Part shown: one piece after another, positions 10,556 through 58,204 of the stretch | How positions within the stretch are numbered: the first letter of the stretch is position 1 | How the letters are laid out: each line of letters opens with the position of its first letter | From: a virus | Lineage: Duplodnaviria; Caudoviricetes | Length of the DNA: 64,000 bases | Virus record (IMG/VR): IMGVR_UViG_3300033068_001747 | Strand: one strand, 5' to 3' | The notes under the pieces: model-generated | Databases searched by the model: none | Seen by the model: only the letters and a program-made list of their open reading frames with translations | Told to the model about the DNA's origin: nothing | Translations under genes and position numbers: made by a program

Positions 10556-11734
10556 ATGAAAATAGATATAAATAAAATAAAAACAACACCATCAGAATTA
10601 GGATTCAACTTCTGTGTATTCGGAAAACCATCTGATGAAATTATAAATTGGTGCAATCACTGGAATTTAAAAATGGAAGATTCTGGTAAATACACAAATA
10701 TTATCTTAAATGATGATACTAAAATCTCTGAAATATTTAATCAACCTAATAAATATGATTATATAGATGGTTTTAGTCCAAACTTAAATAAGCATTTACA
10801 CGTTGGACATTTCTCTAACCTTGTACTAGCTAATGCTTTTCAAAAATTAGGACTAGGAAGTAAGTTTATTGCAATTTTTGGAGATACATTAGAAGGTTCA
10901 GTTCAAAAAGATGATGCTTTAAAATCATATTTTGAATATTGTAAAAACTTTAACTATAATGTAGATGAAATATTCTTTGCATCAGAAATGAAATTAAAAG
11001 ATGAAAGTTTATTAAAAGAAGGTGAAGGTACATACGAAGGTTCTAAAATATTCGATTTAGCAGACGAAAAATTAGTTGGTATAAAAAGTACTGGTTCTAC
11101 ATCTTACTTTTATCAAGATGTTGCTTTAGCAAGTAAATTAAACTCTTCTACATTGTATTTGACCGGTGCAGAACAAGATAATCATTTTAAATCGTTGAAG
11201 AAATTATTCCCAAAAACAAATCACATTGGTTTAGGTTTAGTTCAATTAGACGGTAAAAAAATGTCAAGTAGTGAAGGTAATGTTATTTACATGACCGAAT
11301 TTATAAATAGTTTACTACCATTATTCAATAATGATATAAAGTTAGTTTATAATATTATTGCTGGTCAAATACTTAAATCCAACACAACTTCAAGTAAGTC
11401 AATAGATACAAAGTTGATTGGTAATCCAAAATTATCTTTAGGTTTATATTTAAGTTATACTATGGCACATATTAAAAGCTGTGGTGTTGAAGTACAAGAA
11501 AAACAAGATTTTTATTCTAAACAACTAGAGTTTGCAGAGTTAAAAGCTAAATCTAATTTATCACCAAATATATTATTTGATGCTCTAATAAATCACTGTA
11601 AAAATATAAACAAGTTGTACGAAGTTTTGTACATAAAAGATAATGAAACAAATAAAAAGTTATTCTCTGACTTATTGACAGATTTACATATAGGTATGAA
11701 GAAAATTGGATTATTTCCAGTTGATAAAGTATAA
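10556..11734 (+). CDS. argS: Minimal arginyl-tRNA synthetase-like protein containing no Arg
   Basis: FSPNLNKHLHVGH (HIGH), KSTGSTSYFYQDVA, GAEQDNHF, KKMSSSEG (KMSKS), YLSYTMAH. Confidence 0.8.
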   Translation: MKIDINKIKTTPSELGFNFCVFGKPSDEIINWCNHWNLKMEDSGKYTNIILNDDTKISEIFNQPNKYDYIDGFSPNLNKHLHVGHFSNLVLANAFQKLGLGSKFIAIFGDTLEGSVQKDDALKSYFEYCKNFNYNVDEIFFASEMKLKDESLLKEGEGTYEGSKIFDLADEKLVGIKSTGSTSYFYQDVALASKLNSSTLYLTGAEQDNHFKSLKKLFPKTNHIGLGLVQLDGKKMSSSEGNVIYMTEFINSLLPLFNNDIKLVYNIIAGQILKSNTTSSKSIDTKLIGNPKLSLGLYLSYTMAHIKSCGVEVQEKQDFYSKQLEFAELKAKSNLSPNILFDALINHCKNINKLYEVLYIKDNETNKKLFSDLLTDLHIGMKKIGLFPVDKV

Positions 11735-11759
11735 AAAAAGTCCTTGAAAAAGGACTTTT

Positions 11760-12266
11760 TTATTTTATTTTTATATTTTCAAGGTCTTTGATAATATCAT
11801 CAATATACTTATTGTATTTTGTTGCATTTACATTTCTTTTTATAGAACTCTCAAAGAAATCTATTATACCTTCAACTTGTGAAGATATTTCTTCTGTTTT
11901 TTCTGATATATAAGGCATTCTAATATCTTCTCTTTCATAACTATCAAAAAATTCAGGGAATCTTTCAATAACTTTTTTTGCTGTTTCTTCTTCTTTACCT
12001 GGTTCACACTTAACTAAAAATCCTCTATCATAAGGTTCACCTATCAATTTAAGACCTAATCTTCTTAGTAATTTTTCAGCAAAGTCATAATCAACATCAC
12101 GACCTTCAGACCAGATAATTATTTCACCTTTTTGATATATTGGTGATCTTAATGACATAGTTTCTAAATTAGTAACGTCAATTGTTTCATCAGTATTTCG
12201 GGTTCTATAATCTGAACCACTTTGGTGAGCCGGAACGATACCTTCAAATAATTTTATGTATTTCAT
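11760..12266 (-). CDS. Hypothetical protein with N-terminal MKYIKLFE leader
   Basis: Leader motif and upstream AATATATA. Confidence 0.6.
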   Translation of the reverse strand: MKYIKLFEGIVPAHQSGSDYRTRNTDETIDVTNLETMSLRSPIYQKGEIIIWSEGRDVDYDFAEKLLRRLGLKLIGEPYDRGFLVKCEPGKEEETAKKVIERFPEFFDSYEREDIRMPYISEKTEEISSQVEGIIDFFESSIKRNVNATKYNKYIDDIIKDLENIKIK

Positions 12267-12352
12267 AACTTATATATTAAATTAAATTTCTCAAAATATA
12301 TATTATTAGTTGTTATATATCATGATGTTGCATGAAAATCAATATATAAGTA

Positions 12353-12595
12353 ATGTGGTATGTTTATATAGTAGAATGTAATGACTCAACTCTTTATACG
12401 GGTATTTCCAACAACGTGGAAAAAAGAATTGAAACTCATAATAAAAAGAAAGGTGCTAAGTACACAAAAACAAGAACACCTGTAAAATTAGTTTATCAAC
12501 AATCTTTTGAAACAAAATCTTTAGCATCAAAAGAAGAATGGAGAATCAAACAACTAACAAGAAATCAAAAAATTCTTTTAATAAACCAAAAATAG
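12353..12595 (+). CDS. GIY-YIG nuclease (UPF0213/YhbQ-like)
   Basis: YVYIVEC..LYTGI...R...HN..KGAKYT. Confidence 0.9.
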   Translation: MWYVYIVECNDSTLYTGISNNVEKRIETHNKKKGAKYTKTRTPVKLVYQQSFETKSLASKEEWRIKQLTRNQKILLINQK

Positions 12596-12612
12596 TTTGT
12601 ATATTTGCCATT

Positions 12613-13473
12613 ATGAAAACAATATTTCTGGACATAGATGGTGTATTAAACGTAGATTATGCAGATAGAGACCAATTTGGTCATATCTTCAGAGACGAGT
12701 ATGTCCAAAATTTAAAAGAAATTATTGAAAAAACTGGAGCCAAACTTGTTATATCTTCTACTTGGAAAGATAAAGGAATAGAACGAATGTTAGATTTATG
12801 GAAAGAACGTAATTTACCTGGTGAAATTATTGATATAACACCAGATTGTGTAGAAGTATGTGAGAACACTAACATAGTTTATTACGACCAAGTAAAACGA
12901 GGACATGAAATAAAACTTTGGTTAGATAGACACCCAGAAGTAACTCAGTATGTTATACTAGATGATATACAAGACTTTTTAGATGAACAACAAGTACATT
13001 TTGTAAATTGTTCAACAGGAGAACCTGTAAAACCTTGGAAATTAGGAATACCAGGATTAAAAGAAGAATGTAAAATTAAAGCAATAAATATATTAAACAT
13101 GAAAGATAAAATCGAATTCGCAGAATTTTTAGATATCCAATCAAAATTGGAAATCAAAGTAGGTGTTATTAAAACAGTAACAGATGTACCTAAATCAGAT
13201 AAACTTATCAAATTAGAAGTTGATTTTGGGGAAGATGAATTAAGAACTGTTGTAACAAACATTAAACCTTCATTAGGTGAATACTACGTAGAACAACTAA
13301 CTGGTGCAAGTTTACCATTCGTAACTAACTTAAAACCTGCTAAAATGATGGGTATTGAGTCAACTGCTATGATTATGCCAGGATTTTACGAAAATACAAG
13401 TAAGGTACTTGACTGGACAGGTAAATTATCTTTATCTACTATTGATTCTAAACCAGGAACTTCAATTCTATAA
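12613..13473 (+). CDS. HAD phosphatase (RNA-repair type) fused to a Trbp111/MetRS C-terminal OB-fold tRNA-binding domain
   Basis: IFLDIDGVLN, LVISSTW, YVILDD; then EIKVGVI...SDKLIKLEVDFG...NLKPAKMMGIESTAMI; start follows a TATATTTG promoter. Confidence 0.8.
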   Translation: MKTIFLDIDGVLNVDYADRDQFGHIFRDEYVQNLKEIIEKTGAKLVISSTWKDKGIERMLDLWKERNLPGEIIDITPDCVEVCENTNIVYYDQVKRGHEIKLWLDRHPEVTQYVILDDIQDFLDEQQVHFVNCSTGEPVKPWKLGIPGLKEECKIKAINILNMKDKIEFAEFLDIQSKLEIKVGVIKTVTDVPKSDKLIKLEVDFGEDELRTVVTNIKPSLGEYYVEQLTGASLPFVTNLKPAKMMGIESTAMIMPGFYENTSKVLDWTGKLSLSTIDSKPGTSIL

Positions 13474-14224: not shown

Positions 14225-14255
14225 AGGTAGATATGTTACTTTTATATATAGTAGT

Positions 14256-15032
14256 ATGAAAGAAAATATCAAAATTGATATAAACAATAAATACTTTTGT
14301 TATATATTAGGATTACTATGGGGAGATGGATACCTCTACAAAGGAAGAGTTGGTATATCAATGATTTCAGAAGATTTAGACCCTCTAGTAAGCATTTTTA
14401 GTCATATAGGAGATTGGAAAATATGTAAGTCTTCAAGAAAAGACTATAAAGAACAAACAACTCTTAGAGTCTCAGATAAGAAACTGTATACTTTTTTAAC
14501 TAGTATGGATTTTGATATAAAGTCAAAAACATCACCAAATAAAATTTTAAATATAATAGAAGAACATAACTTTAAATATTTTTTAAGGGGATTTTTTGAT
14601 GCAGATGGTTGTTTCTATATAAACAAGAATACTAGACAATGTATAATTACATCAAACTATTCACAAAACTGGGACTTTTTATCTAATTTTTACTCTAGTA
14701 AAGGATGGAAACACTCAATAGGTAAACAAATTAGTAAAACAGGAAGCAGATCATTTATTAGAATAACAAATAAAGATATATTAAAATTTGGAAACTTTAT
14801 ATATAATGGTGACCCCTTTGGAATAGAAAGAAAATATAACAAGTTTATAGATATAGAAAAATCATATATTAAAAAAAATAGAGTAGGACATAATAAAAAA
14901 TCTATTTATATAGAGGATATTCAATATGATAGTATATCAGAGGCAGTCTTACTAACAGGTATAAATAGAGAAGTTATAAGATATAGATTAAAATCAAAAA
15001 AATTTAATTATAGATACAATGAAGAAATTTAG
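14256..15032 (+). mobile_element. Free-standing LAGLIDADG homing endonuclease
   Basis: ILGLLWGDG and FLRGFFDADG motifs; C-terminal NUMOD1-like YDSISEA. Confidence 0.85.
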
Positions 15033-15483: not shown

Positions 15484-15512
15484 ACATTTTTTAATTCTTC
15501 TATATAATTCAC

Positions 15513-16481: not shown

Positions 16482-16506
16482 AAAAACCCACTTTCGAGTG
16501 GGTTCT

Positions 16507-35564: not shown

Positions 35565-35606
35565 AATTTGTATATTTGCAATATAATATATAAAAAGAAA
35601 AGAGTT

Positions 35607-40605: not shown

Positions 40606-40653
40606 AGTGTATATATTATTTATTTTATATATATTTGTAAAAATTTAGAAATC

Positions 40654-43369: not shown

Positions 43370-43777
43370 ATGTTATTAACTAAAAGCGTTGAATATGCTA
43401 TTAAATCACTCATACTAATCAATTATGATAGTAAAATAAATATCGAATATATTAGTTCTAAACTAGATATACCTAGAAGTTTCACATCAAAAATATTACA
43501 AGTACTTGTAAAAAAGGACTACATCTCTTCTAAAAGAGGCCCAGGTGGTGGTTTTGTAGTAAATGATTATTCAAAAACATTAAAAGATTTAATATGTGAT
43601 ATTGATCATAAATTTGATTATGATAAATGTGTTATGGGATTAAGTGGCTGCTCTGATGAGAATGCTTGTCCTTTACATGAAAATTTCAAAGAAATTAAAA
43701 ATAAAATTTTAAACGAATTAATGATATTAAAAATATCAGATATTTGTAAAAATCCAAATAAAGTTTTAAAACTATAA
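43370..43777 (+). CDS. Rrf2 family transcriptional regulator
   Basis: KSVEYAIKSL, SKRGPGGGF, C-x5-C-x5-C. Confidence 0.9.
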   Translation: MLLTKSVEYAIKSLILINYDSKINIEYISSKLDIPRSFTSKILQVLVKKDYISSKRGPGGGFVVNDYSKTLKDLICDIDHKFDYDKCVMGLSGCSDENACPLHENFKEIKNKILNELMILKISDICKNPNKVLKL

Positions 43778-43800
43778 GAATATTTTTTATATATATAATA

Positions 43801-43832
43801 ATTGTAGATATGAATGTCTTTTTATCTACAAT
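43801..43832. promoter_or_regulatory. Inverted repeat, candidate Rrf2 operator upstream of nrdD
   Basis: attgtagata-N12-tatctacaat perfect 10-bp arms. Confidence 0.45.
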
Positions 43833-43852
43833 TAAAAAAATTATATAAAACT

Positions 43853-45631
43853 ATGTTTACAAAATTAGATGAATTACAAAAAAAGGTTAAAAAGGATTTT
43901 ATAAAGAATTATATAAACTCCAAGAATGCAGCAAGTGGATCATTATTTGATCCAAATTCAAATGTTACTTCTAAAAATATTGCAACTTTAGAAGCAGAAT
44001 TAAACAAAGATATTAACATACAAGTTAATAGGTCTCTTATCTATTCTAAAATAGAAGAAAATTTTGGAACAGAAATGGCAGACTCATATATTAAAGACAT
44101 TGAAGACCACTTAATATATGTTCATGATGAGACATCATTGAAGCCATATTGTGTGAGTATCTCAATGTATCCGTTGTTATTAAATGGTTTAAGTGGCTTA
44201 GGTGGTGAGTCGAAAGCACCTAAACACTTAGCAAGCTTTTGTGGTTCATTTATTAACCTTTTATTCTCAGTGTCATCACAGTTCGCTGGTGCAGTAGCTA
44301 CTGTGGAATTCTTACTTTACTTTGACCACTTTGCAAGATTAGATTATGGAGATGACTACTTAACAACACATAAAAAAATAATAGAGAATGAGTTACAACA
44401 TGTAGTTTATGCTATTAACCAACCTGCCGCGGCAAGAGGTTATCAATCAGTATTTTGGAATATATCTTTATATGATATTGAATATTTTAATTCAATGTTT
44501 GGTGACTTTGTTTTTCCTGATATGGATAAACCAAACTATAGTAGCTTAGATAAACTACAGAAGTTTTTCATGAAATGGTTTAATAAAGAAAGGGAAAATG
44601 CGGTATTAACATTCCCTGTAATCACAGCAGCTATGTTGACTAAAGATAAAAAAGTATATGATGTTAACTTTGGTAACTTTTGTGCAGAAGAGTTAAGTGA
44701 AGGTAATTCATTCTTTATATATCAATCAGAAAGTGCAGATTCATTAGCATCTTGTTGCAGACTAAGAAATGAAATATCTGATAATACTTTTAGCTACTCT
44801 CTTGGTGCTGGTGGTGTATCCACTGGTTCTATAAATGTGATAACTATTAATATGAATAGACTTATTCAAAAAGATATTAGTCTAGATGATTTATTAGATA
44901 GAATATATAAATATCAAATGTCATACCGATATTTAATACAGGATTACTTAGATGCTAAGATGTTACCTGTTTATGATTCTGGTTTTATATCAATTGATAA
45001 ACAATTTCTAACAATAGGTATAAATGGTATGGTTGAATCCGCAGAATATCTTGGAATTGAAATATCAGATAATGATAAATATAAAGACTATATCAATAGT
45101 AGATTGAAAACAATATATGATAAAAATAAATTAGCAAAGATTGAATATGGTTGCATGTTTAATACTGAATTCGTCCCTGCTGAAAATTTAGGAGTAAAAA
45201 ATGCTAAGTGGGACAAAGAAGATGGTCTATTCGTAACAAGAGACTGTTATAACTCATACTTTTATATAGTTGAGGACGAGTCACAGAATGTAGTAGATAA
45301 ATTCTTTTTACATGGAAATGATTATATAAAATATCTAGATGGTGGTAGTGCATATCATTGTAATTTAGAAGATTATCCTACAAAAGAAGGATTCTTTAAG
45401 CTATTAAATGTATCAGCTTATACTGGTTGTAATTATTTTTGCTTTAATATAAAAGTAACAATATGTAATGATTGTGAACATATAAATAAAAAGACTGAAT
45501 ACCATTGTGTGAAATGTGACAGTAGAAATGTAGATCACGCTACAAGAATAATAGGATATCTTAAAAGAATAACTAGCTTCAGTAAAGATAGACAAAAAGA
45601 AGCAGCAAAAAGATATTACAATCAAAAATGA
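43853..45631 (+). CDS. nrdD: Anaerobic (class III) ribonucleotide reductase
   Basis: PYCVS, SCCRL, PAENL, CNDC..CVKC, RIIGYL glycyl-radical motif. Confidence 0.95.
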   Translation: MFTKLDELQKKVKKDFIKNYINSKNAASGSLFDPNSNVTSKNIATLEAELNKDINIQVNRSLIYSKIEENFGTEMADSYIKDIEDHLIYVHDETSLKPYCVSISMYPLLLNGLSGLGGESKAPKHLASFCGSFINLLFSVSSQFAGAVATVEFLLYFDHFARLDYGDDYLTTHKKIIENELQHVVYAINQPAAARGYQSVFWNISLYDIEYFNSMFGDFVFPDMDKPNYSSLDKLQKFFMKWFNKERENAVLTFPVITAAMLTKDKKVYDVNFGNFCAEELSEGNSFFIYQSESADSLASCCRLRNEISDNTFSYSLGAGGVSTGSINVITINMNRLIQKDISLDDLLDRIYKYQMSYRYLIQDYLDAKMLPVYDSGFISIDKQFLTIGINGMVESAEYLGIEISDNDKYKDYINSRLKTIYDKNKLAKIEYGCMFNTEFVPAENLGVKNAKWDKEDGLFVTRDCYNSYFYIVEDESQNVVDKFFLHGNDYIKYLDGGSAYHCNLEDYPTKEGFFKLLNVSAYTGCNYFCFNIKVTICNDCEHINKKTEYHCVKCDSRNVDHATRIIGYLKRITSFSKDRQKEAAKRYYNQK

Positions 45632-46080
45632 GATTTAAAGAATATAATATAGTATTCCAAGAGATACCTAATGAGGTATCTCTTTGTTTCTCTATAACAG
45701 GTTGTAACCTAAGGTGTGATGGTTGTCACTCACCATTTTTATGGAAAATTAATAGCGGTGATTTATTAACAATAGATGTATTAAATACACTTTTAAAAAA
45801 ATATGATAAGATTATATCTTGTGTTCTTTTTATGGGTGGAGAATGGCACACTAAAGAGTTTATTAAAACATTATCTTATATTAGAAGCATGGGTATAAAA
45901 ACCGCTTTATATACAGGGTTAGAACTTGATGATGTTAGTGTGGATATTAGAAATAATTTAGACTATTTAAAGTTTGGACCTTGGATAAAAGAATTAGGTG
46001 GACTTCAATCAAAGACAACAAATCAAAAATTATTAAATATAAATAATGATGAGTGTTTAAATCACTATTTTATTAAATAA
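45628..46080 (+). CDS. nrdG: Class III RNR activase (radical SAM)
   Basis: GCNLRCDGCHS. Confidence 0.93.
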   Translation: MRFKEYNIVFQEIPNEVSLCFSITGCNLRCDGCHSPFLWKINSGDLLTIDVLNTLLKKYDKIISCVLFMGGEWHTKEFIKTLSYIRSMGIKTALYTGLELDDVSVDIRNNLDYLKFGPWIKELGGLQSKTTNQKLLNINNDECLNHYFIK

Positions 46081-46331
46081 ACTTTTTCAATATTAGATTA
46101 TTTAAAGATTAAAATATAAATTAAATTATGACTTTTATAAATATCAGAAATTATTAACCACACTTATAATATGATTCAAAGGATTTTGAACGATTAATGA
46201 TGTTAGGAATAATCCAAATGGATTAGGTGGACAAGCTATGACAAGAACATAAACAATATTTTAAACATGAATATTCTTTTATTCTAAAAGAAAAAATAAC
46301 AATAGAGAGAACAACAAATGAATAAGATTTT

Positions 46332-46553
46332 ATGAAAGTAGTTTGTATAAAAAAATACCTATCTACCAATTTAAGATATGAACTTACTTATGGTAAAATA
46401 TATGAAACTCTACCTAAGTTTCCTAATGATTTAGAAGATGATTATAGAATAGAGTGTGATAGAGGTTTTATAGAATTTTATAGTAAAGATACATTTATAA
46501 CTTTAGAAGATTGGAGAGAACAACAAATAAATAAAATTGTAAATGAATATTAG
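46332..46553 (+). CDS. Small protein with C-terminal tag (paralog of 48878)
   Basis: KVVCI...LT.GK.Y...FITLEDWREQQINKI. Confidence 0.55.
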   Translation: MKVVCIKKYLSTNLRYELTYGKIYETLPKFPNDLEDDYRIECDRGFIEFYSKDTFITLEDWREQQINKIVNEY

Positions 46554-46824
46554 ATGTATATTTGGACATAAATGGGAACTTTCTAAAATAGAAAGAGAGA
46601 TTGAATATAACTTACCTAAGCTTGGTAAAAAAGGTGCTTGGAATGGTTCAGGTAGAAAGGTTATTATGACTACTTCTGATGATATTAGAATATGTAAAAG
46701 ATGTTATAAGAAACAAAAGGCAATGTATAGTCCATTTAGTCATGTTAGAATTGCAGATTGGAGGAATGATGAACTCAGTAAAGATGAACTTAGAGATAAA
46801 AAATTAAAAGAATTAGGTATATGA
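46543..46824 (+). CDS. Zinc-finger-like protein with C-terminal tag
   Basis: CIFGHKW...CKRC; ELRDKKLKELGI. Confidence 0.6.
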   Translation: MNIRCIFGHKWELSKIEREIEYNLPKLGKKGAWNGSGRKVIMTTSDDIRICKRCYKKQKAMYSPFSHVRIADWRNDELSKDELRDKKLKELGI

Positions 46825-47087
46825 GTCTTAAATTAATAGCCAAAAAAACACATATTGTACGTAAAAACATTCAAGGTAATGGTAAAACTAGCCATATTAT
46901 TGAAAAAGGTCAAATATTTACCATCTTTGTCAAACATATTACAAAGTATGACAAAGATGGTGAATTGGTGACTGTTTGTATATACCATATAAAAGATGGT
47001 TGGATTATAAATTTTAAAAACTTTACAACAAAGGAGAAATATACTGCAATCAAAAGACAACATATATTAGATCAAATATTAGGTTAA
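46821..47087 (+). CDS. Hypothetical protein with C-terminal tag
   Basis: IKRQHILDQILG. Confidence 0.5.
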   Translation: MSLKLIAKKTHIVRKNIQGNGKTSHIIEKGQIFTIFVKHITKYDKDGELVTVCIYHIKDGWIINFKNFTTKEKYTAIKRQHILDQILG

Positions 47088-47102
47088 TAAATAAATAAAA
47101 AT

Positions 47103-47250
47103 TATATTTGTAACTTAGGAGACTAACGTCGTTTGTACTAAGGAAGTAGCAAGTCAAACAGTTCGAGGGTGTCGGTTTCCCTATGAGAATGGGTTGATGC
47201 AAAGATAAATGATAGGATAGAACAAAATCGCGGCTAAGCTCACTTACTTT
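47103..47250 (+). ncRNA. rnpB: RNase P RNA, 3' fragment (P5 3' strand, P15-P17, 3' strands of P2, P4, P1)
   Basis: GTAGCAAGTCAAACAG, GGGTTGATGC, AGATAAATGATAGG and ACAAAATCGCGGCT match conserved RNase P segments. Confidence 0.78.
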
Positions 47251-47304
47251 TTAAATTAAAATAAACTTTCATATTTTAAAAACTATACTTAAAAAAAACA
47301 ACTT

Positions 47305-48369
47305 ATGTTAACAACTTTGCTAATTTTAGCTTTACTTGCAGTTTGTATCTTTGAATTTGTAAATGGATTTCACGATACTGCTAATGCCGTTGCGACGGTA
47401 ATTTACACAAAATCTTTAAAACCTAAACAAGCAGTTGTTTGGTCAGGAATTATGAACTTTCTTGGACTTATGACTGGTGGTGTAGGTGTCGCACTTAGTA
47501 TTGTAACACTAATACCCAAAGAACTAATCACTGATACTAACATATACCACTCTATGGGAATGGTTATGTCAATTCTTATTACTGCAATTTTTTGGAATTT
47601 AGCAACTTGGTACAAAGGAATTCCTGCTTCTTCTTCACATACTTTAATCGGCTCAATAATTGGAGTTTCTGTAGGTTACTCTATTTTAACTGGTGTAGAT
47701 TACACTAATTGGGGTAAAATTATTGATATAGGAAAAGCGTTAGCTTTCTCACCTTTATTAGGTTTCACTATGGTTATACTTTTAATGTGGTTTCTAAACA
47801 AAGTTATCAAAAGAAAAGATGTATTTGAAGAGCCAAATGGTGATACTCCACCACCAACTTGGATTAGAGCGACTTTAATTTCAACTTGTACATTAGTTTC
47901 ATTTTTTCACGGAAGAAATGACGGTCAAAAAGGAATTGGTTTAGCAATGATTATACTTATGGCTTTCTTACCTACTTACTTTACATTAGAAACTGTTGAA
48001 AATCCACCAATGTGGGTTATGTGGATGATTGCTACGTCATTAGGATTAGGAACAATGATTGGTTGGAAAAGAATTGTAGTTACAATTGGAGAGAAAATTG
48101 GTAAACAACACTTAACTTATGCACAAGGTGCTTCTTCTGAATTAGTTGCTGCAATCACAATTGGATTATCAACTGCATTTAAACTACCAGTATCAACAAC
48201 ACACATTCTAAGTTCTGGTATTGCAGGGTCAATGGTGGCATCAAAAGGAATAAATAATTTAAAAACTAAAACAATTAAAACAATATTATCCGCTTGGATT
48301 CTTACGTTACCAGTAACAATTGTGGTATCATGTGGATTATTTCTATTATTTAGATATATTTCAGGATAA
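47305..48369 (+). CDS. pit: Inorganic phosphate transporter (PiT family)
   Basis: NGFHDTANAVAT, P.SSSH, HGRND, PVSTTH. Confidence 0.93.
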   Translation: MLTTLLILALLAVCIFEFVNGFHDTANAVATVIYTKSLKPKQAVVWSGIMNFLGLMTGGVGVALSIVTLIPKELITDTNIYHSMGMVMSILITAIFWNLATWYKGIPASSSHTLIGSIIGVSVGYSILTGVDYTNWGKIIDIGKALAFSPLLGFTMVILLMWFLNKVIKRKDVFEEPNGDTPPPTWIRATLISTCTLVSFFHGRNDGQKGIGLAMIILMAFLPTYFTLETVENPPMWVMWMIATSLGLGTMIGWKRIVVTIGEKIGKQHLTYAQGASSELVAAITIGLSTAFKLPVSTTHILSSGIAGSMVASKGINNLKTKTIKTILSAWILTLPVTIVVSCGLFLLFRYISG

Positions 48370-49700: not shown

Positions 49701-49811
49701 GGTCTGTTCGTCTAGCGGATGTCACTTCGGTGATAGGACGACACTTCTACGCTTAAATGTGCCCTGGTATATGGAGAGGTGTAAACAAAGGTTCGAATCC
49801 TTTACAGACTA
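49701..49811 (+). tRNA. tRNA-Glu-scaffold repeat A (extended arm, no canonical anticodon loop)
   Basis: ggtctgt/acagact, D-loop UUCG hairpin insert, 8-bp stem with 26-nt loop, T-arm. Confidence 0.7.
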
Positions 49812-49931
49812 CAAAAAAAAATGAAAAAAGATTTGGTAGATTAAAAAAGTCTTCGTATCTTTGTCAAACAAAATAAGAGTAGGTGTCTTGTGAAATTCTT
49901 GACTTCTTGGTGTACGATAGCACAACTCTTC

Positions 49932-50018
49932 GGTCTGTTCGTCTAGCGGTGTCACTTCGGTGACTAGGACAACTTCCCTTTCAGGAAGGAAACGCGGGTT
50001 CGAATCCCGTACAGACTA
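49932..50018 (+). tRNA. tRNA-Glu-scaffold repeat B (6-nt loop CTTTCA)
   Basis: cttcc-CTTTCA-ggaag retains TTC. Confidence 0.75.
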
Positions 50019-50080
50019 CTGCTTTAATGGAATTTTAAGCTTGAGTTTTGTGATGGAACTCTTTAAAGAACTATCACATC

Positions 50081-50169
50081 GGTCTGTTCGTCTAGCGGTT
50101 CACTTCGGTGATAGGACAACTTTTCAGTGAGTGATGAAGTAAACGCGGGTTCGAATCCCGTACAGACTA
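50081..50169 (+). tRNA. tRNA-Glu-scaffold repeat C (non-canonical arm)
   Basis: Same acceptor, D and T sequences; arm acttttca-gtgag-tgatgaagt. Confidence 0.7.
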
Positions 50170-50234
50170 CAAATAAAATATAGGTGGTTACACGCCAGTA
50201 ATGGTGTGTGTATCAAAGAGGTAAGCCACTTATC

Positions 50235-50322
50235 GGTCTGTTCGTCTAGCGGATGTCACTTCGGTGACTAGGACATCTTCTCTTCGGAGTTGGGAACGCA
50301 GGTTCGAATCCTGTACAGACTA
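50235..50322 (+). tRNA. tRNA-Glu-scaffold repeat D (UUCG tetraloop in place of the anticodon)
   Basis: ctc-TTCG-gag caps the anticodon arm. Confidence 0.7.
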
Positions 50323-50339
50323 CAACAAATAAAACATAT

Positions 50340-50412
50340 CGCGGGATAGAGCAGTAGGCAGCTCGCAAGGCTCATAACCTTGAGGTCACAGGTTCGAGTC
50401 CTGTTCCCGCTA
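50340..50412 (+). tRNA. Initiator tRNA-fMet (CAT)
   Basis: C1:T72 mismatch, CGCGGGA acceptor, CTCATAA loop. Confidence 0.9.
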
Positions 50413-50494
50413 CTAAGTGTAAATGTCATTCTGTAATGTTGACAAGTTGGTACTTTTAGTATCCATCTTTAGTGTAATTAAAACACGACACTTC

Positions 50495-50607
50495 GGTCTG
50501 TTCGTCTAGTGGACGTTTACTGAACACAAAGCTTCGGCATTAAAGTAAAGTAAACAGGACTTCTCCCTTAGAAGGAGACAACGCGGGTTCGAATCCCGTA
50601 CAGACTA
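50495..50607 (+). tRNA. tRNA-Glu-scaffold repeat E with TAG anticodon and long D-loop insert
   Basis: tctcc-CTTAGAA-ggaga canonical 7-nt loop; D insert closed by gtttact/agtaaac. Confidence 0.7.
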
Positions 50608-50780: not shown

Positions 50781-51630
50781 GTTCTTTGAAAATATTGTAT
50801 TATCCAACTAGTCACTTCGGTGGTTAGTAAAATGATAATCGGCGGTGTATCGTCGTTAAATAAACTACGAAAGTAGGATAAAGTGGAATCAACGTTAAAT
50901 GGTTCTGCGGCTCGTAAGAGCTCGAGTACACAAGTGGGATATCCAACGTCCTGATTAACCGAGGGCTTACGCTGTAGGTGAAATGGAATTTGGACTTGGC
51001 AATGTGGATTGTCGAGTTGATGTGGGAACACCAATAAGAATAACCCATAGGAACTCTGTAAGAAAGGTAGCTCCAACTATCTGATTGCGGGTTCCAATAT
51101 AAAAGGCAACTTAAAACCGAAAGGTAAGGTAGAGAACAGGTGGTGCTGCTACTATCCCTACTAAATGTCTACCAAGACGTTAGTTTGAAGTTTTCTTGAA
51201 GTATGGAGGCTGGGAGGCTTCACGAAGGAGTTTAGTATTTCGTTGTTCAAAAGATAACGAAGCTTACGACAGACCACTTCTTCGACACATCCACGAACAC
51301 AAAAGCAATTTACATTTGAAGTAAAATTTAAACATAAAAAGCGAAAGTGTCTGTCAGGTTTCAACGAAAGTTGACTACATACTTAGGAGCTGTTCCTAGG
51401 ACGTCAAGACCGCAAGTTAAGACGTATTCTTGCCAAAAACCTCTAAGGGGTCGAACCCTTAATCAGACCGCAAGTTTGAAGAGAGTTGAGTAATAAGAGA
51501 GTAGTTGAAACCTCAAGAAGTGATTAGTCTAACTAATCGTCAATGAGAATTACAATCCAAAAGATTGTGGATACGAAGAGAAACAATAATTCTTCAAAAG
51601 ATTCTTACAAGATGGCATAATCTCAGCCTA
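50781..51630 (+). ncRNA. Large structured ncRNA (~850 nt), GOLLD-like
   Basis: GC-richer than its flanks, no credible ORF, many GNRA/UUCG hairpins; own promoter at 50723-50754, boxA-like gttctttgaaaat, terminator at ~51665; next to a tRNA cluster. Confidence 0.6.
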
Positions 51631-51660
51631 TTATTTCTAAACAACAAAACACGTGAAACA

Positions 51661-52630: not shown

Positions 52631-52655
52631 CAAAAAACAAAAAAAACAAAAAACA

Positions 52656-55178
52656 ATGAGGAAATTATTATTAATTCTAATCGGACTTTTTAGTATGACG
52701 GTATCAGCTCAAACTAAAGAGAAAGTAGAGGACCAAACTACTAAAAAAGACTCGGTCGAAAATGTTAAAGAACTACAAGAAGTTGTAGTTGTAGGTAGAG
52801 GAGTTATTGACCTAGCAAAAGAAAGAAAAACTCCTATTGCGGTTTCAACAGTAAAAGCGGTTGAAATACAAGCAAAAGTTGGTACAGCAGACGTTACACA
52901 AGCTTTGGTAAACACACCATCTGTTTATGTTGCAGGACAAGCTGGAGGTTTTGGTGACTCAAGAATCTCAGTTCGTGGGTTCCAACAAGACAATACTGCT
53001 TTCCTATTAAATGGTCAACCAATCAATGGTATGGAAGATGGTAAGATGTACTGGTCTAACTGGTCGGGTATGTCAGATATTGCAAATGCAATACAAATTC
53101 AAAGAGGTTTAGGTTCTTCTAAACTAGCAATCTCATCAGTCGGTGGTACAGTAAACTTTATTACAAGAGCAACTGATATGAGACAAGGTGGATTTTCATC
53201 AGCAGGTGTTGCTAATGATGATTATTTAAAAACAACAGTTGGATATAATACAGGTATTATGGAAAACGGTTTCGGTGCAAGTGTTATGTTATCACATTGG
53301 CAAGGTGATGGTTATTTTGATGGAACAAAAGGTCAAGGTCAAAACTACTTTATCTCATTCGGTTATAAACCAAATGCAAAACATAACTTTAACTTCTTAA
53401 TTACTGGTGCACCACAGCAACACGATCAAAACTTCACAAAAAAGATTTCTGATTACTTAGGTTTCGGCAGAAGATATAATAACAATTACGGTTATTTGAA
53501 TGGTCAATATATATCAGAAAGAGTGAATTTTTATCATAAACCAGTTGCAAACTTTAACTGGGATTATAAAATAAACGATAAGCTAGACTTATCAACAGTT
53601 CTTTATGCATCTTGGGGTAGAGGTGGAGGAACTGGTAACTACGGTAGTGGGAAGAAAAGTGTTTCTCAATTAAATCCTTATACAGGTCAAATGCAAAACA
53701 CTTATATTGATTTTAATCAGATTTATGCTAATAACTCAGCAGATGCTGATGGTATTGGATCTAGTTCAAATTATGCAATTAGATCATCTATGAATAATCA
53801 TGAGTGGTATGGTATTGTGTCAAACTTAAAAAATAAGTTGAATGATAATTTAACATTAAACTTAGGAGTTGATTTAAGAACATATAATGGTGATCACTAT
53901 AGACAAATTACTAATTTTATGGGGTTAAATGGATGGACTGAAAGTAGATTTTTAAGAGATAATAATCATGTTATTCCTAACCCAAATACATTACCAAGTG
54001 CAACCATTACAGTTAATCAATCATTTAGTACTAACCCGTGGTCTGCATTCTTTAATAAAGCAGATGATAGTCAAAAAATTGACTATGACTACAGTGAAAC
54101 AATTTCTTACGGTGGAGTCTTTGGACAATTAGAGTATTCTAAAGATAACTTCTCAACTTTCTTTCAAGGAGCAGTTTCTAATCAAACACACCAAAGATTT
54201 GACTACTATGACTATCAAAAAGAATTTCAAAATTCTGAAAAAGTTTCTAATGTAGGATATAATGTAAAAGGTGGTGCCGCATATAACTTCAATGAAAAAC
54301 ACGTTGTTTATGGAAATGCTGGATATTACTCAAGACAACCATATCATGATAACATTTACTTAAACTTTACTAACCAAGTAAACCCATTAACACAAAACGA
54401 GAAAGTTTTAGGACTAGAAGCTGGTTATACATTCAAATCAAAAGTTTTTACTACTAGCATAAACGCTTATAGAACAACTTGGGAAGATAGAGTCGTAACT
54501 ACATCAAATGTTCAATCTACAAATGGAGTTATTGGAACTACACCAGTTTCTGTAGGTGATGTCATCTTCACATCCAATCAAGGTGTTAGACAAATTCATT
54601 CTGGTGTTGAGTTAGACTTTATATTAAAACCTGTTGCTAAATTAGATATTAAAGGATTTGCATCAGTTGGAAACTGGGAATATAGTGGAAGTGCTACTAG
54701 TAGAAAATTTGATGAAAACTTAAATTTACTAACTGAAGCTGAAACAAATTTAGATGGTGGAAAAGTAGGTGATGCTGCTCAAACAACTTGGGGATTAGGT
54801 GCTAAATATGAATTGTTAACAAGATTCTCTATTGATGCTGATTGGAGAAACTATGATAATTTATATGCAAATGTAGTTGCTAAAGATAACTTACAGTTAC
54901 CTTCTTATGACTTAGTAGATATGGGTATATCATATAAAATGTTAGTAGGTAAAGACAAACAAAATTCTGTAAACTTTAGATTAAATGTAAATAACTTATT
55001 TGATGAAGTTTATTTATCTGAGTTAACTTCTAATATTAAAACTGATGCATTTATCAGTGGAAACTCAGGACCTACATATCAATCTGCAGGTAGAGTTTAC
55101 AAAGGAATCGCTGATGGAAACCAAGGTTTCTTTGGATTTGGAAGAACTTGGAACTTAACATTAAGATATAATTTCTAA
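52656..55178 (+). CDS. TonB-dependent outer membrane receptor
   Basis: LQEVVVVG TonB box, plug motifs (ISVRGF, IQIQRG), C-terminal GRTWNLTLRYNF. Confidence 0.93.
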   Translation: MRKLLLILIGLFSMTVSAQTKEKVEDQTTKKDSVENVKELQEVVVVGRGVIDLAKERKTPIAVSTVKAVEIQAKVGTADVTQALVNTPSVYVAGQAGGFGDSRISVRGFQQDNTAFLLNGQPINGMEDGKMYWSNWSGMSDIANAIQIQRGLGSSKLAISSVGGTVNFITRATDMRQGGFSSAGVANDDYLKTTVGYNTGIMENGFGASVMLSHWQGDGYFDGTKGQGQNYFISFGYKPNAKHNFNFLITGAPQQHDQNFTKKISDYLGFGRRYNNNYGYLNGQYISERVNFYHKPVANFNWDYKINDKLDLSTVLYASWGRGGGTGNYGSGKKSVSQLNPYTGQMQNTYIDFNQIYANNSADADGIGSSSNYAIRSSMNNHEWYGIVSNLKNKLNDNLTLNLGVDLRTYNGDHYRQITNFMGLNGWTESRFLRDNNHVIPNPNTLPSATITVNQSFSTNPWSAFFNKADDSQKIDYDYSETISYGGVFGQLEYSKDNFSTFFQGAVSNQTHQRFDYYDYQKEFQNSEKVSNVGYNVKGGAAYNFNEKHVVYGNAGYYSRQPYHDNIYLNFTNQVNPLTQNEKVLGLEAGYTFKSKVFTTSINAYRTTWEDRVVTTSNVQSTNGVIGTTPVSVGDVIFTSNQGVRQIHSGVELDFILKPVAKLDIKGFASVGNWEYSGSATSRKFDENLNLLTEAETNLDGGKVGDAAQTTWGLGAKYELLTRFSIDADWRNYDNLYANVVAKDNLQLPSYDLVDMGISYKMLVGKDKQNSVNFRLNVNNLFDEVYLSELTSNIKTDAFISGNSGPTYQSAGRVYKGIADGNQGFFGFGRTWNLTLRYNF

Positions 55179-55239
55179 TTATTATCCAAAAAATTTTAAA
55201 AAAGTCGAAACTTAGTTTCGACTTTTTTATATTATACAT

Positions 55240-55485
55240 ATGAGAGAAGAACTTTTACTACAATACGTAAATGAAATTAAGGAAATTTACGATGATAGAT
55301 TAGTTTACATAGACTTTTATACAGAAATCGGACCTATCTTAAACATAAAATTTATTAGTTGTGATTATGAACTAGAATTAAATAGTTTACACTATACAGA
55401 TTGTGATGGTGATCCTATAATAGAAAAATGTAAACAAATATTTATCAAATATAAAAGACATGAAACCTTAAAAAAATTACTTTAA
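55240..55485 (+). CDS. Hypothetical protein with C-terminal tag
   Basis: YKRHETLKKLL. Confidence 0.5.
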   Translation: MREELLLQYVNEIKEIYDDRLVYIDFYTEIGPILNIKFISCDYELELNSLHYTDCDGDPIIEKCKQIFIKYKRHETLKKLL

Positions 55486-55503
55486 AAATTAAAAAAACTT
55501 ATT

Positions 55504-55887
55504 ATGAAAAAACTTTTATTTACATTACTATTATTATTCTCATTTGCATTAGTATCAGCACAAACTGAGTTTACCAGAATCTATACAAAGATCTGTACAA
55601 TTGAAAAAGGTAAGGAACCAAAATGGAATGACGCAGAAAACAAATTTATCTTTAATTATCAAAATGATGCAACTATCAAAATGATATTAAATAACGGCAC
55701 TGTCAAATTCTTTGATCAAGTTACTGATTTAGTTGAAAATAAAACTGAAGGTGGTATTTCTTATCAAGGTGCAGAATTTAAAGAACAAGGAACCTCTTTT
55801 AAGGTCTACCTACAAATATTTGATGACGCAGACTATGGTACAAGAATCATTTTCACTAACGGTACAATGGTTCAATTTACAAACTAA
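55504..55887 (+). CDS. Secreted hypothetical protein
   Basis: Signal peptide ...VSA-Q. Confidence 0.55.
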   Translation: MKKLLFTLLLLFSFALVSAQTEFTRIYTKICTIEKGKEPKWNDAENKFIFNYQNDATIKMILNNGTVKFFDQVTDLVENKTEGGISYQGAEFKEQGTSFKVYLQIFDDADYGTRIIFTNGTMVQFTN

Positions 55888-55927
55888 TCTACAAAAATCT
55901 TGAATATATTAAAAATAAAGTACAAAA

Positions 55928-56173
55928 ATGGAACAAAAAGAACTTAACTACGGAATTATGCCAGGAGAAACTTGGCGACACTACAAAGGTGGTAACTACA
56001 AAATTATCACTCTAGCAAATCATACTGAAACTAAAGAACCTTTAGTTATTTATCAATCTATATCATTTGGATCAATCTATGCAAGACCTTTATCAATCTG
56101 GTGTGATACCGTTGAAAATAGAAGAGGTGGTTTGGAACCAAGATTTGTAAAAGTTGAAAGTGAAAATGAGTAA
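55928..56173 (+). CDS. DUF1653 family protein
   Basis: WRHYKGGNY...HTET.E.LVIYQ...YARPL. Confidence 0.85.
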   Translation: MEQKELNYGIMPGETWRHYKGGNYKIITLANHTETKEPLVIYQSISFGSIYARPLSIWCDTVENRRGGLEPRFVKVESENE

Positions 56174-57446
56174 GATAGATTTATTACTAGGTCTTCAATG
56201 GGGAGACGAAGGAAAAGGAAAAATTGTAGATGTTATTACATCAAAATATGACATAGTTGCAAGATTTCAAGGTGGTCCAAATGCTGGACATACAATCTAC
56301 TTTGATGGTAGAAAACATGTTTTAAGAACTATACCATCAGGTGTATTCAATAAAAATACAATAAATATAATTGGTAATGGTGTTGTACTTGATCCAGTTG
56401 TATTTAAACAAGAAGTTGAAGAACTACTTAAATTTGATAAAACTATTAAAGATAGATTACTTATCTCAAGAAAAGCTCATCTTATTTTTCCAACACACAA
56501 ACTTTTAGATGCTACATCAGAAGCAGCCAAAGGTAAAGATAAAATTGGCTCTACTCTTAAAGGTATTGGACCTACTTATATGGACAAAACTGGTAGAAAT
56601 GGTATCAGAGTTGGCGATTTAGAATTACCAGACTTCCATAAAAGATTTGCTAAGTTAGAAAAGAAACATGATGAACTAATTGATTGGGGTGTTATTGAAC
56701 AATTTAACACTAACTATGATGATATGCAAGATGAATTTTTAGATGCAATTACTTATCTAAAACAATTTACATTTATCGATAGTGAAGAATATCTATTTCA
56801 AGCTCAACAACAAGGAAAATCAATTCTTTGTGAAGGAGCTCAAGGTTCTTTATTAGATGTTGACTTTGGTACTTATCCATTTGTTACTTCTTCTAATACA
56901 ACTGCCGCAGGAGCTTGTACTGGTTTAGGAATTGCCCCTAATAAAATACAAGATGTGTTTGGTATATTTAAAGCATACACAACAAGAGTTGGTAGTGGTC
57001 CATTTCCAACTGAATTGTTTGATGAAACAGGTGAGAAAATGGCTAAAATTGGTAATGAATTTGGATCTGTTACTGGTAGAGCAAGAAGATGTGGTTGGTT
57101 AGATTTAGTTGCGTTAAAATACACTTGTCAAATTAATGGTGTAACTGAACTAATGATGATGAAAGCAGACGTACTATCAGGATTTGACAATATAAAGGTT
57201 TGTATAGGTTATAAATATAAAGGTGAAGTAATTACTCACTTTCCTTATAACATTGAACCAGAGAACTTAGAACCTATCTATTTAGGGTTTAGTGGTTGGT
57301 CAGAAGACTTAACTGGAATTACAGATTATAAGGATTTACCAGATGAACTAAAAGAATATATAGAGTTTATTGAAAAAGAAACAGGAATAAATATAACACT
57401 TGTTTCTGTGGGTCCAGATAGAAAACAAACAATAAGAAAAAATTAG
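56166..57446 (+). CDS. purA: Adenylosuccinate synthetase
   Basis: QWGDEGKGK, GGPNAGHT, GTYPFVTSS, GRARRCGW. Confidence 0.97.
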   Translation: MSKIDLLLGLQWGDEGKGKIVDVITSKYDIVARFQGGPNAGHTIYFDGRKHVLRTIPSGVFNKNTINIIGNGVVLDPVVFKQEVEELLKFDKTIKDRLLISRKAHLIFPTHKLLDATSEAAKGKDKIGSTLKGIGPTYMDKTGRNGIRVGDLELPDFHKRFAKLEKKHDELIDWGVIEQFNTNYDDMQDEFLDAITYLKQFTFIDSEEYLFQAQQQGKSILCEGAQGSLLDVDFGTYPFVTSSNTTAAGACTGLGIAPNKIQDVFGIFKAYTTRVGSGPFPTELFDETGEKMAKIGNEFGSVTGRARRCGWLDLVALKYTCQINGVTELMMMKADVLSGFDNIKVCIGYKYKGEVITHFPYNIEPENLEPIYLGFSGWSEDLTGITDYKDLPDELKEYIEFIEKETGINITLVSVGPDRKQTIRKN

Positions 57447-57478
57447 GAATATAAAAAAATAAGTTATACATTTGCATT

Positions 57479-57523
57479 ATGAAAAATAGATTTAATTTTA
57501 ATGTCCATTGTAGCCATAGATAA
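57479..57523 (+). promoter_or_regulatory. Candidate His leader peptide MKNRFNFNVHCSHR* with overlapping hairpin
   Basis: uORF right after a TACATTTG promoter; two CAT codons; hairpin tgtagcc...ggctata (57509-57536). Confidence 0.55.
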
Positions 57524-57541
57524 TATCTGGGCTATAAAACT

Positions 57542-58204
57542 ATGTACAAAAAATTAAAACTAAAAACAATGGAAATTAAATTAAAAAATACCTATAAAGG
57601 AACAAGAATAATATTTGCTGAAACTGCAAAAAGAAAAAGAACTATTTTGAACCAAATGATTGAAATACTTGAATCATATGGTTACCAAGAAATGATGATT
57701 CCTGTCATTCAATTATCTGATACATTTGCTAAAAAAGTTGGTGAAGAAAACAATAACATGATGTACACTTTTACTGATAGAGGTAATAGAGACATCTGTT
57801 TAGCACCAGAATATACTGCTGTTGTGCAACAACTTGCAAATGAAACATTCAAAATGACTAAAGATGTAAAACTCTTTTACATTGGAGAATGTTTTAGAGG
57901 CGAAAGACCTCAGGCATCAAGATGGAGACAATTTACACAATTTGGTGTTGAAGTAATCAATCCAAGAAAAGATTACACAGATGAATTGTTAGAAATAGCA
58001 AAGAAACTTATTGAAATAGTCACAGATAACTATGAAGTTAATTTAGATGCAACTAGAGGACTTGACTACTATACTGGTGGTAAAGGATTTGAGATTTCTT
58101 GTCCACAATTAGGTGCAGCCAAACAAATTTGCGGAGGTGGCTCTTATCAAGGAGGAGTGGGACTGGCTATAGGTGTGGATAGATTACTGAATTGTAACCA
58201 ATAA
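57542..58204 (+). CDS. hisS: Minimal histidyl-tRNA synthetase-like catalytic domain containing no His
   Basis: KGTR, LAPEYTA, FRGERPQASRWRQFTQFGVE, RGLDYYTG, GGGSY, G.AIGVDRL. Confidence 0.85.
   Translation: MYKKLKLKTMEIKLKNTYKGTRIIFAETAKRKRTILNQMIEILESYGYQEMMIPVIQLSDTFAKKVGEENNNMMYTFTDRGNRDICLAPEYTAVVQQLANETFKMTKDVKLFYIGECFRGERPQASRWRQFTQFGVEVINPRKDYTDELLEIAKKLIEIVTDNYEVNLDATRGLDYYTGGKGFEISCPQLGAAKQICGGGSYQGGVGLAIGVDRLLNCNQ

Follow-up and report, generated by a model that had tools for sequence, protein, structure and literature searches.

Leader-peptide transcription attenuators are known from the his, leu, thr and ilv operons and, in the case of a synthetase, from pheST; in their classical form a promoter is followed by a short open reading frame (ORF) containing the regulatory codons, then by alternative hairpins and a terminator with a U-run. 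A low cognate bias protects the enzymes of amino acid supply in starvation, as in the tryptophan synthase alpha without Trp (Alves and Savageau 2005; Fasani and Savageau 2014, PMC4209129): proteins that restore a supply are depleted in the amino acid concerned, and recovery does not end in a deadlock. According to selective-charging theory, an isoacceptor remains charged where the demand for its codons is low, and leaders are written with sensitive codons (Elf, Nilsson, Tenson and Ehrenberg 2003; Elf and Ehrenberg 2005, PMC1183508), robust ones being used in the genes needed during shortage. Here we describe five reduced aminoacyl-tRNA synthetase-like genes in a 64,000-nucleotide stretch of the viral record IMGVR_UViG_3300033068_001747 (the whole stretch is hereafter called the window), together with their counterparts in related huge phages. 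Genes of this set avoid the amino acid that their product would charge, or nearly all of its codons but one, and in the relatives several of them stand behind leaders with cognate codons. The finding is an extreme, undescribed variant of these known principles and not a new kind of system.

The window comprises bases 64001-128000 of a viral contig (132,473 bp, 28-29% G+C) that is labelled a provirus in IMG/VR and 60% complete by CheckV. LR745206, an uncultured phage of 634,780 bp, shows 69-75% identity to the proteins of the contig; LR756504 (636 kb) and LR756501 (735 kb) gave more distant protein matches, and metagenome contigs of 639,601 and 648,731 bp hold closer homologs. These three phages are Mahaphage genomes with predicted Bacteroidetes hosts according to the main text of Al-Shayeb et al. 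(2020, PMC7162821), which reports up to 15 synthetases and up to 67 tRNAs for genomes of this type. Judging by these matches, the best reading of the contig is that of a piece of a huge phage of the Mahaphage type. Its host is probably a member of the Bacteroidota, which fits both a TonB-dependent receptor gene in the window and the TAnnTTTG promoter-like motifs found before several genes, a motif class known from that group. Each relative has 38-67 tRNAs and as many as 14 synthetase-like genes; the contig has only three tRNAs. Rfam matches in the window consisted of three tRNAs and one GOLLD RNA, with no T-box or other known RNA switch among them.

An earlier note on this DNA had predicted a set of five miniature synthetases, and all five genes are indeed present:

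10556-11734, plus strand: trimmed ArgRS-like enzyme of 392 amino acids without any Arg codon (from composition, motifs and AF2/Foldseek)
23876-24751, plus strand: class IIb (Asp/Asn/Lys-type) catalytic core of 291 amino acids without OB domain (PF00152, AF2/Foldseek)
31377-32633, plus strand: bacterial-type LeuRS of 418 amino acids with neither the CP1 editing domain nor most of the C-terminal region (TIGR00396)
39263-40105, plus strand: GluRS catalytic core of 280 amino acids without anticodon-binding domain and with an internal deletion (gltX_bact, PF00749)
57542-58204, plus strand: HisRS catalytic core of 220 amino acids without any His codon and without insertion and anticodon-binding domains (hisS, motifs)

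The longer class IIb frame from 23798 is probably over-extended, and the relatives of the HisRS core start at the Met at 57569. The shortening that the note had described was borne out as well: all five proteins lack domains for editing or for anticodon or tRNA recognition, and because these domains are missing, all five score below the curated equivalog cut-offs. They are, to judge from their sequences, synthetase cores and not full family members.

When we compared the composition of each gene with that of the contig (172-176 ORFs called simply as longest frames, and 7,599 gene-by-codon tests), the ArgRS-like gene encoded no Arg among 392 residues where 15.2 were expected (P = 1.8e-7), the strongest complete absence of a residue on the contig, and the LeuRS gene used TTG for 24 of its 26 Leu against a background of 9% (P = 1.9e-23), the first rank among all tests. 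This bias is limited to Leu. Indeed, LeuRS has AAA for 32 of 35 Lys, GAA for 27 of 31 Glu, and the usual A-ending codons for Lys, Glu, Gln and Arg, which rules out a general preference for G-ending codons or a bias linked to expression. A constraint from the antisense frame was ruled out too, since TCA, which is also an antisense stop, occurs 5 times and CTT is avoided as well. The HisRS core has no His in 220 residues (expected 3.1), which alone gives P = 0.04. In the GluRS core, GAG accounts for 13 of 21 Glu codons against a background of 0.21 (P = 5e-5, rank 8 of the 7,599 tests), a shift that would be borderline if tested blindly and that reaches significance only as a hypothesis set beforehand. 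Thus, of the avoidance that the earlier note had described in four genes, the missing Arg, the missing His and the nearly exclusive TTG for Leu stood, and the preference for GAG was seen again but proved weaker; the biases are outliers on the contig and, as shown below, are conserved in homologs. Taken as a whole, the pattern is stronger than the note had put it.

The LeuRS of the window has a LeuRS-type catalytic core (HIGH, here HCGH; KMSKS; zinc knuckle), and at 418 amino acids, compared with the usual ~800-880, it lacks CP1 and the C-terminal tRNA-binding domain. Its best NCBIfam match is TIGR00396 at 369 bits, below the cut-off of 548.4, the profile being matched in two pieces that skip CP1. 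Seventeen solved LeuRS sequences matched it at E <= 3e-66, the best being that of Mycoplasma mobile (PDB 3ZIU, E = 7e-78), a natural CP1-less LeuRS with the same clean CP1 loss; compared with this 637-residue enzyme, however, the phage protein also lacks most of the C-terminal tRNA-binding part and is coded with TTG only. Its LR745206 counterpart uses TTG for 18 of 18 Leu, and most of the 30 LeuRS relatives in IMG/VR are near-exclusively TTG (19/19, 20/20, 25/26), counts which share ancestry and are not independent events. In the relative L127 the LeuRS gene uses CTG instead, for 19 of 20 Leu, in a genome where CTG makes up 5.5% of Leu codons; unlike the others examined, this genome has a tRNA-Leu(CAG), part of a cluster of Leu tRNAs found ~1 kb away from its LeuRS gene. 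LR756501 has a more distant LeuRS, a protein of 508 residues without a single Leu; full-length cellular LeuRS enzymes contain 5.3-9.8%. TTG in LR745206 and CTG in the L127 phage are among the codons with the lowest usage per matching phage tRNA gene, a low demand that is consistent with selective-charging theory. That theory was fitted to E. coli biosynthetic operons, and neither a whole gene with one codon per amino acid nor a lineage switch between TTG and CTG is described there.

The relatives also carry tRNAs of 74-76 nt that have Leu anticodons (CAA, UAA, UAG, AAG) and no long variable arm, beside normal Leu tRNAs of 81-92 nt. They were observed at 389932-390005 and neighbouring sites in LR745206, at 590132-590292 in LR756504, at 194300-194452 in LR756501 and at 169169-169543 in G001; the only tRNA(CAA) of LR745206 is of this short kind (74 nt). 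These short tRNAs may be partners of the trimmed LeuRS. A database homolog of LeuRS with 813 amino acids (P0390) has intein or homing-endonuclease domains inside the enzyme.

The ArgRS-like protein has a HIGH-type HVGH, a KMSKS-type KMSSS and a G-x3-Y-x3-D-x-A stretch that aligned to yeast and Thermus ArgRS, and these motif positions are invariant in 35 members of its family. Solved ArgRS enzymes have ~570-600 amino acids and a full domain set, which this protein of 392 lacks; argS (TIGR00456) was its sole NCBIfam match, at 36.8 bits against a cut-off of 261.65. Its AF2 model has a pLDDT of 92.6, and Foldseek placed ArgRS at ranks 1-17, followed by CysRS and MetRS, the ArgRS matches having E down to 4.6e-16 and TM by query of 0.62-0.72. 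The overall fold of the model is closest to ArgRS, and arginylation is the predicted activity. Arg is absent from the orthologues in LR745206 and LR756504 and from 101 of 120 database homologs (60-92% identity; the others carry 1-6 Arg), again numbers that do not count independent events. More distant representatives of mini-ArgRS-like proteins contain from 0 to ~7% Arg, so the fold does not require the absence and the loss of Arg is derived.

The translated HisRS core shows class II motifs 1-3 and, as its His-A motif, RGLDYY. Its best match is hisS at 156.7 bits (cut-off 286.75), and PF03129 (HGTP) gave no match. His is also missing in the LR745206 counterpart and in 8 of 9 IMG/VR relatives. 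Directly after the gene, at 58147-59028 on the minus strand, lies a free-standing homing-endonuclease gene of the GIY-YIG/NUMOD kind. We ruled out that the core has been cut short by this gene, as the relatives end at the same point after motif 3. The GluRS core has the GluRS catalytic domain (PF00749, 159.8 bits) without an anticodon-binding domain; its best NCBIfam match, gltX_bact at 213.9 bits, is below the cut-off of 289.95, stops at profile position 315 of 470 and skips ~85 internal positions. Within this family, the nearest relatives of the window gene have ~50% GAG, and three other lineages retain just 1-2 Glu with Asp raised to 31-35. The class IIb core matched PF00152 at 38.8 bits (cut-off 25) without a PF01336 match, and its NCBIfam matches all scored ~18-21 bits. 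Its AF2 model (pLDDT 89) found AspRS and AsnRS as top Foldseek hits, with E down to 4.5e-18, and it belongs to a very common viral family with more than 598 viral relatives.

Avoidance of the cognate residue goes well beyond the window. We scanned three complete relatives (LR745206, LR756504 and LR756501; 634-735 kb) for every ORF of at least 120 amino acids that nearly lacks one amino acid, and the strong cases were synthetases whose Pfam class fits the missing residue; the other cases were large low-complexity structural proteins, membrane proteins and scattered weaker ones, some of them without Pfam match. In LR745206, IleRS has no Ile in 735 residues (67 expected), AspRS no Asp in 454, AsnRS no Asn in 392, a Val-type enzyme no Val in 443 and PheRS no Phe in 359; MetRS has no internal Met, GlnRS a single Gln, and a core of the Gly/His/Pro/Ser/Thr type a single Gly. 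LR756504 adds a ThrRS with 1 Thr in 386 residues and a LysRS with 1 Lys in 378. In the reverse census, where synthetase-like genes of LR745206 were located by Pfam, the presumed cognate residue was the most depleted one in 12 of 14 genes, the exceptions being the TTG-only LeuRS and the Glu core. Altogether the avoidance recurs in at least 13 unrelated synthetase families of the related huge phages, and the full-length, domain-complete IleRS, AspRS, AsnRS, GlnRS, ThrRS and PheRS of the relatives avoid their cognate residue too. The switch between TTG and CTG, the occurrence of relaxed lineages and the number of unrelated families point to repeated selection in spite of the shared ancestry of the homologs. 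On this comparative evidence, cognate avoidance is maintained by selection in many lineages and in many unrelated enzyme families. The logic is that of the cognate bias of biosynthetic enzymes, but the bias known from cells is modest and statistical, whereas here it is complete or nearly so (0/735, 0/508), affects charging enzymes of phages and extends down to the choice of a single codon.

Other proteins of these genomes came up in the same comparisons. A CCA-adding enzyme in LR756504 (107701-108867) has 1 Tyr in 388 amino acids where 20 were expected, and a Trbp-type tRNA-binding protein of 176 amino acids in LR745206 (21133-21663) has no Tyr where 9 were expected; residue avoidance may extend past the synthetases to other tRNA-handling proteins. 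An ORF of 491 amino acids without Pfam match (LR745206, 603271-604746, minus strand) uses G-ending codons for 30 of 35 Lys, 31 of 37 Glu and 12 of 17 Gln, the three boxes read by thiolated U34 tRNAs. Two strong codon outliers of LR745206 were considered as tRNA-modification enzymes and rejected, one being the major capsid protein and the other having no Pfam match. In the window, a protein of 562 amino acids encoded at 61956-63644 on the minus strand lacks His (expected 8, P = 3e-4) and is not a synthetase; it has weak Psb32-like and FILTED matches only and adjoins a LemA-family gene (61305-61919).

The second line of evidence comes from the sequences upstream of these genes in the relatives (coordinates of leaders are approximate), where a short ORF with cognate codons is followed by a hairpin and a U-run before the synthetase gene. 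In front of the His-core relatives we found a TAnnTTTG motif, then a short ORF with His codons, then a 10-12-bp hairpin with a U-run; the ORF has three consecutive His codons in L147 (~1359-1415) and L149, two in L154, and three alternating ones plus a fourth at the end in L151, and its 3' end can pair with the 5' arm of the terminator. Leaders before pure-TTG LeuRS genes have six consecutive Leu codons in L116 and four in L121, all of them TTA, CTC or CTA and none TTG, and both are followed by strong terminators. As selective-charging theory would have it, the sensitive codons are in the leader, versus TTG only or CTG only in the LeuRS genes. In LR745206 the Ile-free, Val-free and Phe-free genes are each preceded by a leader, with four Ile codons, five Val codons and four Phe codons, respectively. 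In the same genome (390375-392898) an AsnRS without Asn and an ArgRS-like gene without Arg form a pair behind one leader, whose three Asn and two Arg codons precede a terminator; by its layout this leader is a putative two-amino-acid attenuator. Leaders containing Arg codons were also found in the Arg-like relatives L270, L292 and L293, which links that family to arginine independently of homology, and cognate-codon leaders in general are evidence of amino acid specificity that does not rest on homology. The terminator stems in the relatives have 10-13 bp with U-runs, and folding z-scores range from -3.0 to -6.4. The order of elements is that of classical attenuators; what differs is that they are borne by phages and precede many different synthetase genes, including one mixed Asn/Arg leader, and that the window has remnants or variants only:

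10500-10525, plus strand: intrinsic terminator (11-bp stem and T-run), 30 nt before the ArgRS-like start codon
31338-31345, plus strand: TAnnTTTG promoter-like motif ~30 nt before the LeuRS start
57479-57523, plus strand: upstream ORF of 14 codons that closely follows a TAnnTTTG motif and has two His codons towards its end
57506-57536, plus strand: stable hairpin with both His codons and the stop of the upstream ORF in its 5' arm and with no U-run after it (fold of 57476-57570)

The fold of 57476-57570 reaches -19.4 kcal/mol (z = -3.9). No terminator was called at this hairpin, which resembles a degenerate version of the relatives' terminator stem. Between the terminator at 10500-10525 and the ArgRS-like start codon there is no promoter-like site, and a second hairpin (~10455-10489) spans the last Arg codon (CGT) and the stop codon of an upstream ORF of 112 codons; the terminator may act as an attenuator of the ArgRS-like gene. 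A NusA homologue of the phage (NusA_N and KH domains) is encoded at 579-1811 on the minus strand of the window, in a lineage that seemingly relies on hairpin-dependent attenuation.

We thus favour, with a probability of roughly three in four, the reading that these genes encode spare charging enzymes that would be induced by a shortage of their cognate charged tRNA and would be translatable during that shortage. Each synthetase gene would be written for complete translation even at low levels of the cognate aminoacyl-tRNA, and this could be reached by two routes. In one, the gene does without its cognate amino acid altogether (Arg and His here; Ile, Val, Met, Asp, Asn, Phe, Ala, Lys, Thr, Gln, Gly, Glu and Leu in the relatives). 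In the other, a single rare G-ending codon with its own C34 isoacceptor would be used (TTG for Leu here, CTG in one lineage, and partly GAG for Glu). A shortage of charged tRNA would stall the ribosome in the leader, and transcription would then read through into the synthetase gene; the mRNA, free of the starved codon, would still be translated, and charging would be restored without a deadlock. The Leu sensors would respond through the common non-TTG codons, those that the LeuRS gene avoids. We infer from sequence both that the enzymes charge tRNA and that the attenuators work; if so, a charging step that is failing can probably be rebuilt by the phage with no recourse to that same step. As for the cause of the shortage, the likeliest is the heavy demand that an AT-rich phage makes on a host that is starved or grows slowly. 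Since nearly all amino acids are involved, such a general imbalance, or else a deliberate replacement of host charging, is more probable than a defence directed at certain tRNAs, and the short Leu-anticodon tRNAs of the relatives keep the idea of replacement alive. The earlier note had named anti-phage toxins and attack of the HipA type as the trigger, for which we found no evidence here.

Several observations weigh against this reading. The claim that no enzyme relies on the very step that it restores is strongly upheld by the conservation in homologs, the many families and the cognate leaders, but the Asp/Asn-like gene shows no avoidance, with D at 0.5x, N at 0.8x and E at 1.8x background. 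The Glu-core orthologue in LR745206 is ordinary and shows no avoidance; a few LeuRS lineages are relaxed, with ordinary Leu codons; and avoidance is weaker in LR756504 and LR756501, whose full-length Glu/Gln-type enzymes are ordinary. In the window a leader-like upstream ORF precedes the His gene only, and its hairpin has no U-run. The Leu and Glu genes have the promoter motif only, with no leader ORF between the motif and the LeuRS start and no Glu leaders in front of the genes of the Glu-core family, and the terminator of the Arg gene comes after the 112-codon ORF and not after a short leader. Moreover, domains for editing or anticodon binding are missing from the enzymes, their scores stay under the NCBIfam cut-offs, and if the shortage were a pure lack of amino acid, an extra synthetase would help only by scavenging.

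The earlier note had placed the synthetases in a coordinated system with RNA-repair and other translation-related genes of the window. Four of these were confirmed, and the fifth is a weak and partial match:

12538-13473, plus strand: HAD protein of the RNA-repair type fused to a Trbp111-like tRNA-binding domain (PF18143 and PF01588; similar to the C-terminal part of metG)
34297-35199, plus strand: open frame of 300 codons, the first part of which matches PTH2 (partial, 24.7 bits)
35568-36197, plus strand: HD_4 protein resembling SpoT/RelA-type hydrolases (PF13328, 63 bits)
40516-41298, plus strand: RNA ligase (PF09414, 99.6 bits)
42349-43254, plus strand: polynucleotide kinase-phosphatase (PNKP; PF25109 and PF13671)

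The PTH2-like frame contains no ATG, GTG or TTG before 34657; its start may be unusual, or the gene may be frameshifted or decayed. It is possible that the HAD-Trbp protein serves as a helper in trans for the trimmed enzymes. Coordination of the whole set was not supported: the RNA ligase, PNKP, HD_4 and PTH2-like genes are scattered among unrelated ones (DHFR, NrdD, purA, TonB receptor), and nothing ties them to the synthetases.

These genes nevertheless bear on one rival explanation, in which the enzymes are a counter-defence that rescues translation after toxins or anticodon nucleases have hit tRNAs or synthetases, RNA ligase and PNKP mending the cut tRNAs. The presence of both repair enzymes and of HAD-Trbp would suit it, and C34 isoacceptors, the readers of TTG, CTG and GAG, would escape nucleases that recognise a modified U34. 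Against this, the repair genes are neither adjacent to the synthetase genes nor co-oriented with them in operons, a new synthetase cannot replace a cleaved tRNA, and the avoidance spans nearly all twenty amino acids in the relatives, which is wider than any known tRNA-directed defence; we consider such a role unlikely. Somewhat less unlikely, though still doubtful, is a take-over of the host in which the phage shuts down host charging and runs its own tRNAs with trimmed enzymes, each made after its host counterpart is gone. The large tRNA and synthetase complements of the relatives agree with it, as do the 74-76-nt Leu-anticodon tRNAs beside long-armed ones, among them the sole tRNA(CAA) of LR745206, and a CRISPR spacer of a huge phage directed against a host glycyl-tRNA synthetase gene, reported by Al-Shayeb et al. 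(PMC7162821), who also propose a redirection of translation. Yet many phages have only a few synthetases, the contig of the window has its three tRNAs only, no host-directed nuclease or synthetase inhibitor was identified here, and attenuators that sense shortage fit a supplement made on demand better than a fixed programme.

Alternatively, the proteins could be paralogues that do not charge tRNA (GluQRS-like, HisZ-like, asparagine-synthetase-like or amino acid sensors), their composition being biased for another purpose. GluQRS (YadB), HisZ and the archaeal asparagine synthetase A are catalytic cores without anticodon-binding domains and similar in size to the phage cores, and each of the five phage proteins is missing domains that tRNA recognition or editing normally requires and scores under its equivalog cut-off. 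The phage Glu and His cores, however, score closer to true synthetases: the Glu core reached 122.3 bits with the GluQRS model TIGR03838 (cut-off 276.7), below its GluRS score, and the His core 103 bits with hisZ against 157 bits with hisS, with its catalytic His-A motif kept, so that both assignments were rejected. Of the window cores only the Asp/Asn-like one could plausibly be of the asparagine-synthetase kind, to judge from its model, since it matches archaeal asparagine synthetase A (3reu) in size and fold (TM by target 0.64). A non-charging role would still have to explain the cognate avoidance and the cognate-codon leaders, and the domain-complete enzymes of the relatives behave alike; we regard it as improbable for the set as a whole. 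As to chance, recent horizontal transfer, codon optimisation for expression or an antisense-frame constraint, the missing His alone is no strong case (P = 0.04), and other codon outliers exist, such as the major capsid gene of LR745206 with AAC in 27 of 32 cases. Probabilities of ~2e-23 for TTG and ~2e-7 for Arg, a bias that affects one amino acid only, is conserved over 40% sequence divergence and matches enzyme specificity in many unrelated families, and the use of TCA and avoidance of CTT described above leave these explanations practically no credence; homolog conservation, outlier statistics and the Leu-only bias refute them.

Returning to the spare charging enzymes, a bolder form of the idea would be a self-starting, demand-switched replacement of the host's whole charging layer, with trimmed synthetases matched to phage tRNAs (including those of 74-76 nt with Leu anticodons), stalling sensors, and genes translatable without their own product. 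We put it forward tentatively, as a possibility that we would not bet on. If true, the phage would keep translating after host charging collapses or is shut off, be it by the phage or by a host defence. The main text of Al-Shayeb et al. (PMC7162821), which treats huge phages of the same clade, proposes that their synthetases charge the phage's own tRNAs and makes no mention of missing cognate residues, single-codon usage or leaders; our full-text searches of the literature returned no description of phage synthetases that lack their cognate residue. Why phages carry synthetases is an open question, and a gene without its own amino acid tells when the enzyme is needed, namely when the cognate charged tRNA is missing, which turns a vague role in supporting translation into testable predictions on timing, regulation and substrate. 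Together, the missing residue and the leader codons allow the specificity of divergent synthetase-like genes to be assigned from sequence alone, as supported here for Val and Arg. The genes also confirm the cognate-bias and selective-charging theories in nature with unusual clarity, and they supply natural, active-looking class I and class II cores made from 19 amino acids, which are of interest for minimal translation systems and genetic-code engineering.

Elsewhere in the window, a free-standing homing-endonuclease gene of the LAGLIDADG/I-TevI-like kind lies at 14256-15032 on the plus strand. Host-like metabolic genes occupy 43370-48369 and 52656-57446 (Rrf2 regulator, NrdD and its activase, PHO4 phosphate transporter, TonB-dependent receptor, adenylosuccinate synthetase). 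At the gathering threshold, Rfam gave no RNase P RNA around the nrdD block and no tRNA-Glu-like RNAs at 49701-50607. A full-length GOLLD RNA was found at 51223-51629 on the plus strand (Rfam RF02032, 324 bits, E = 5e-92); it sits in a G+C-richer stretch at 48-52 kb, near a tRNA-Met at 50340-50413.

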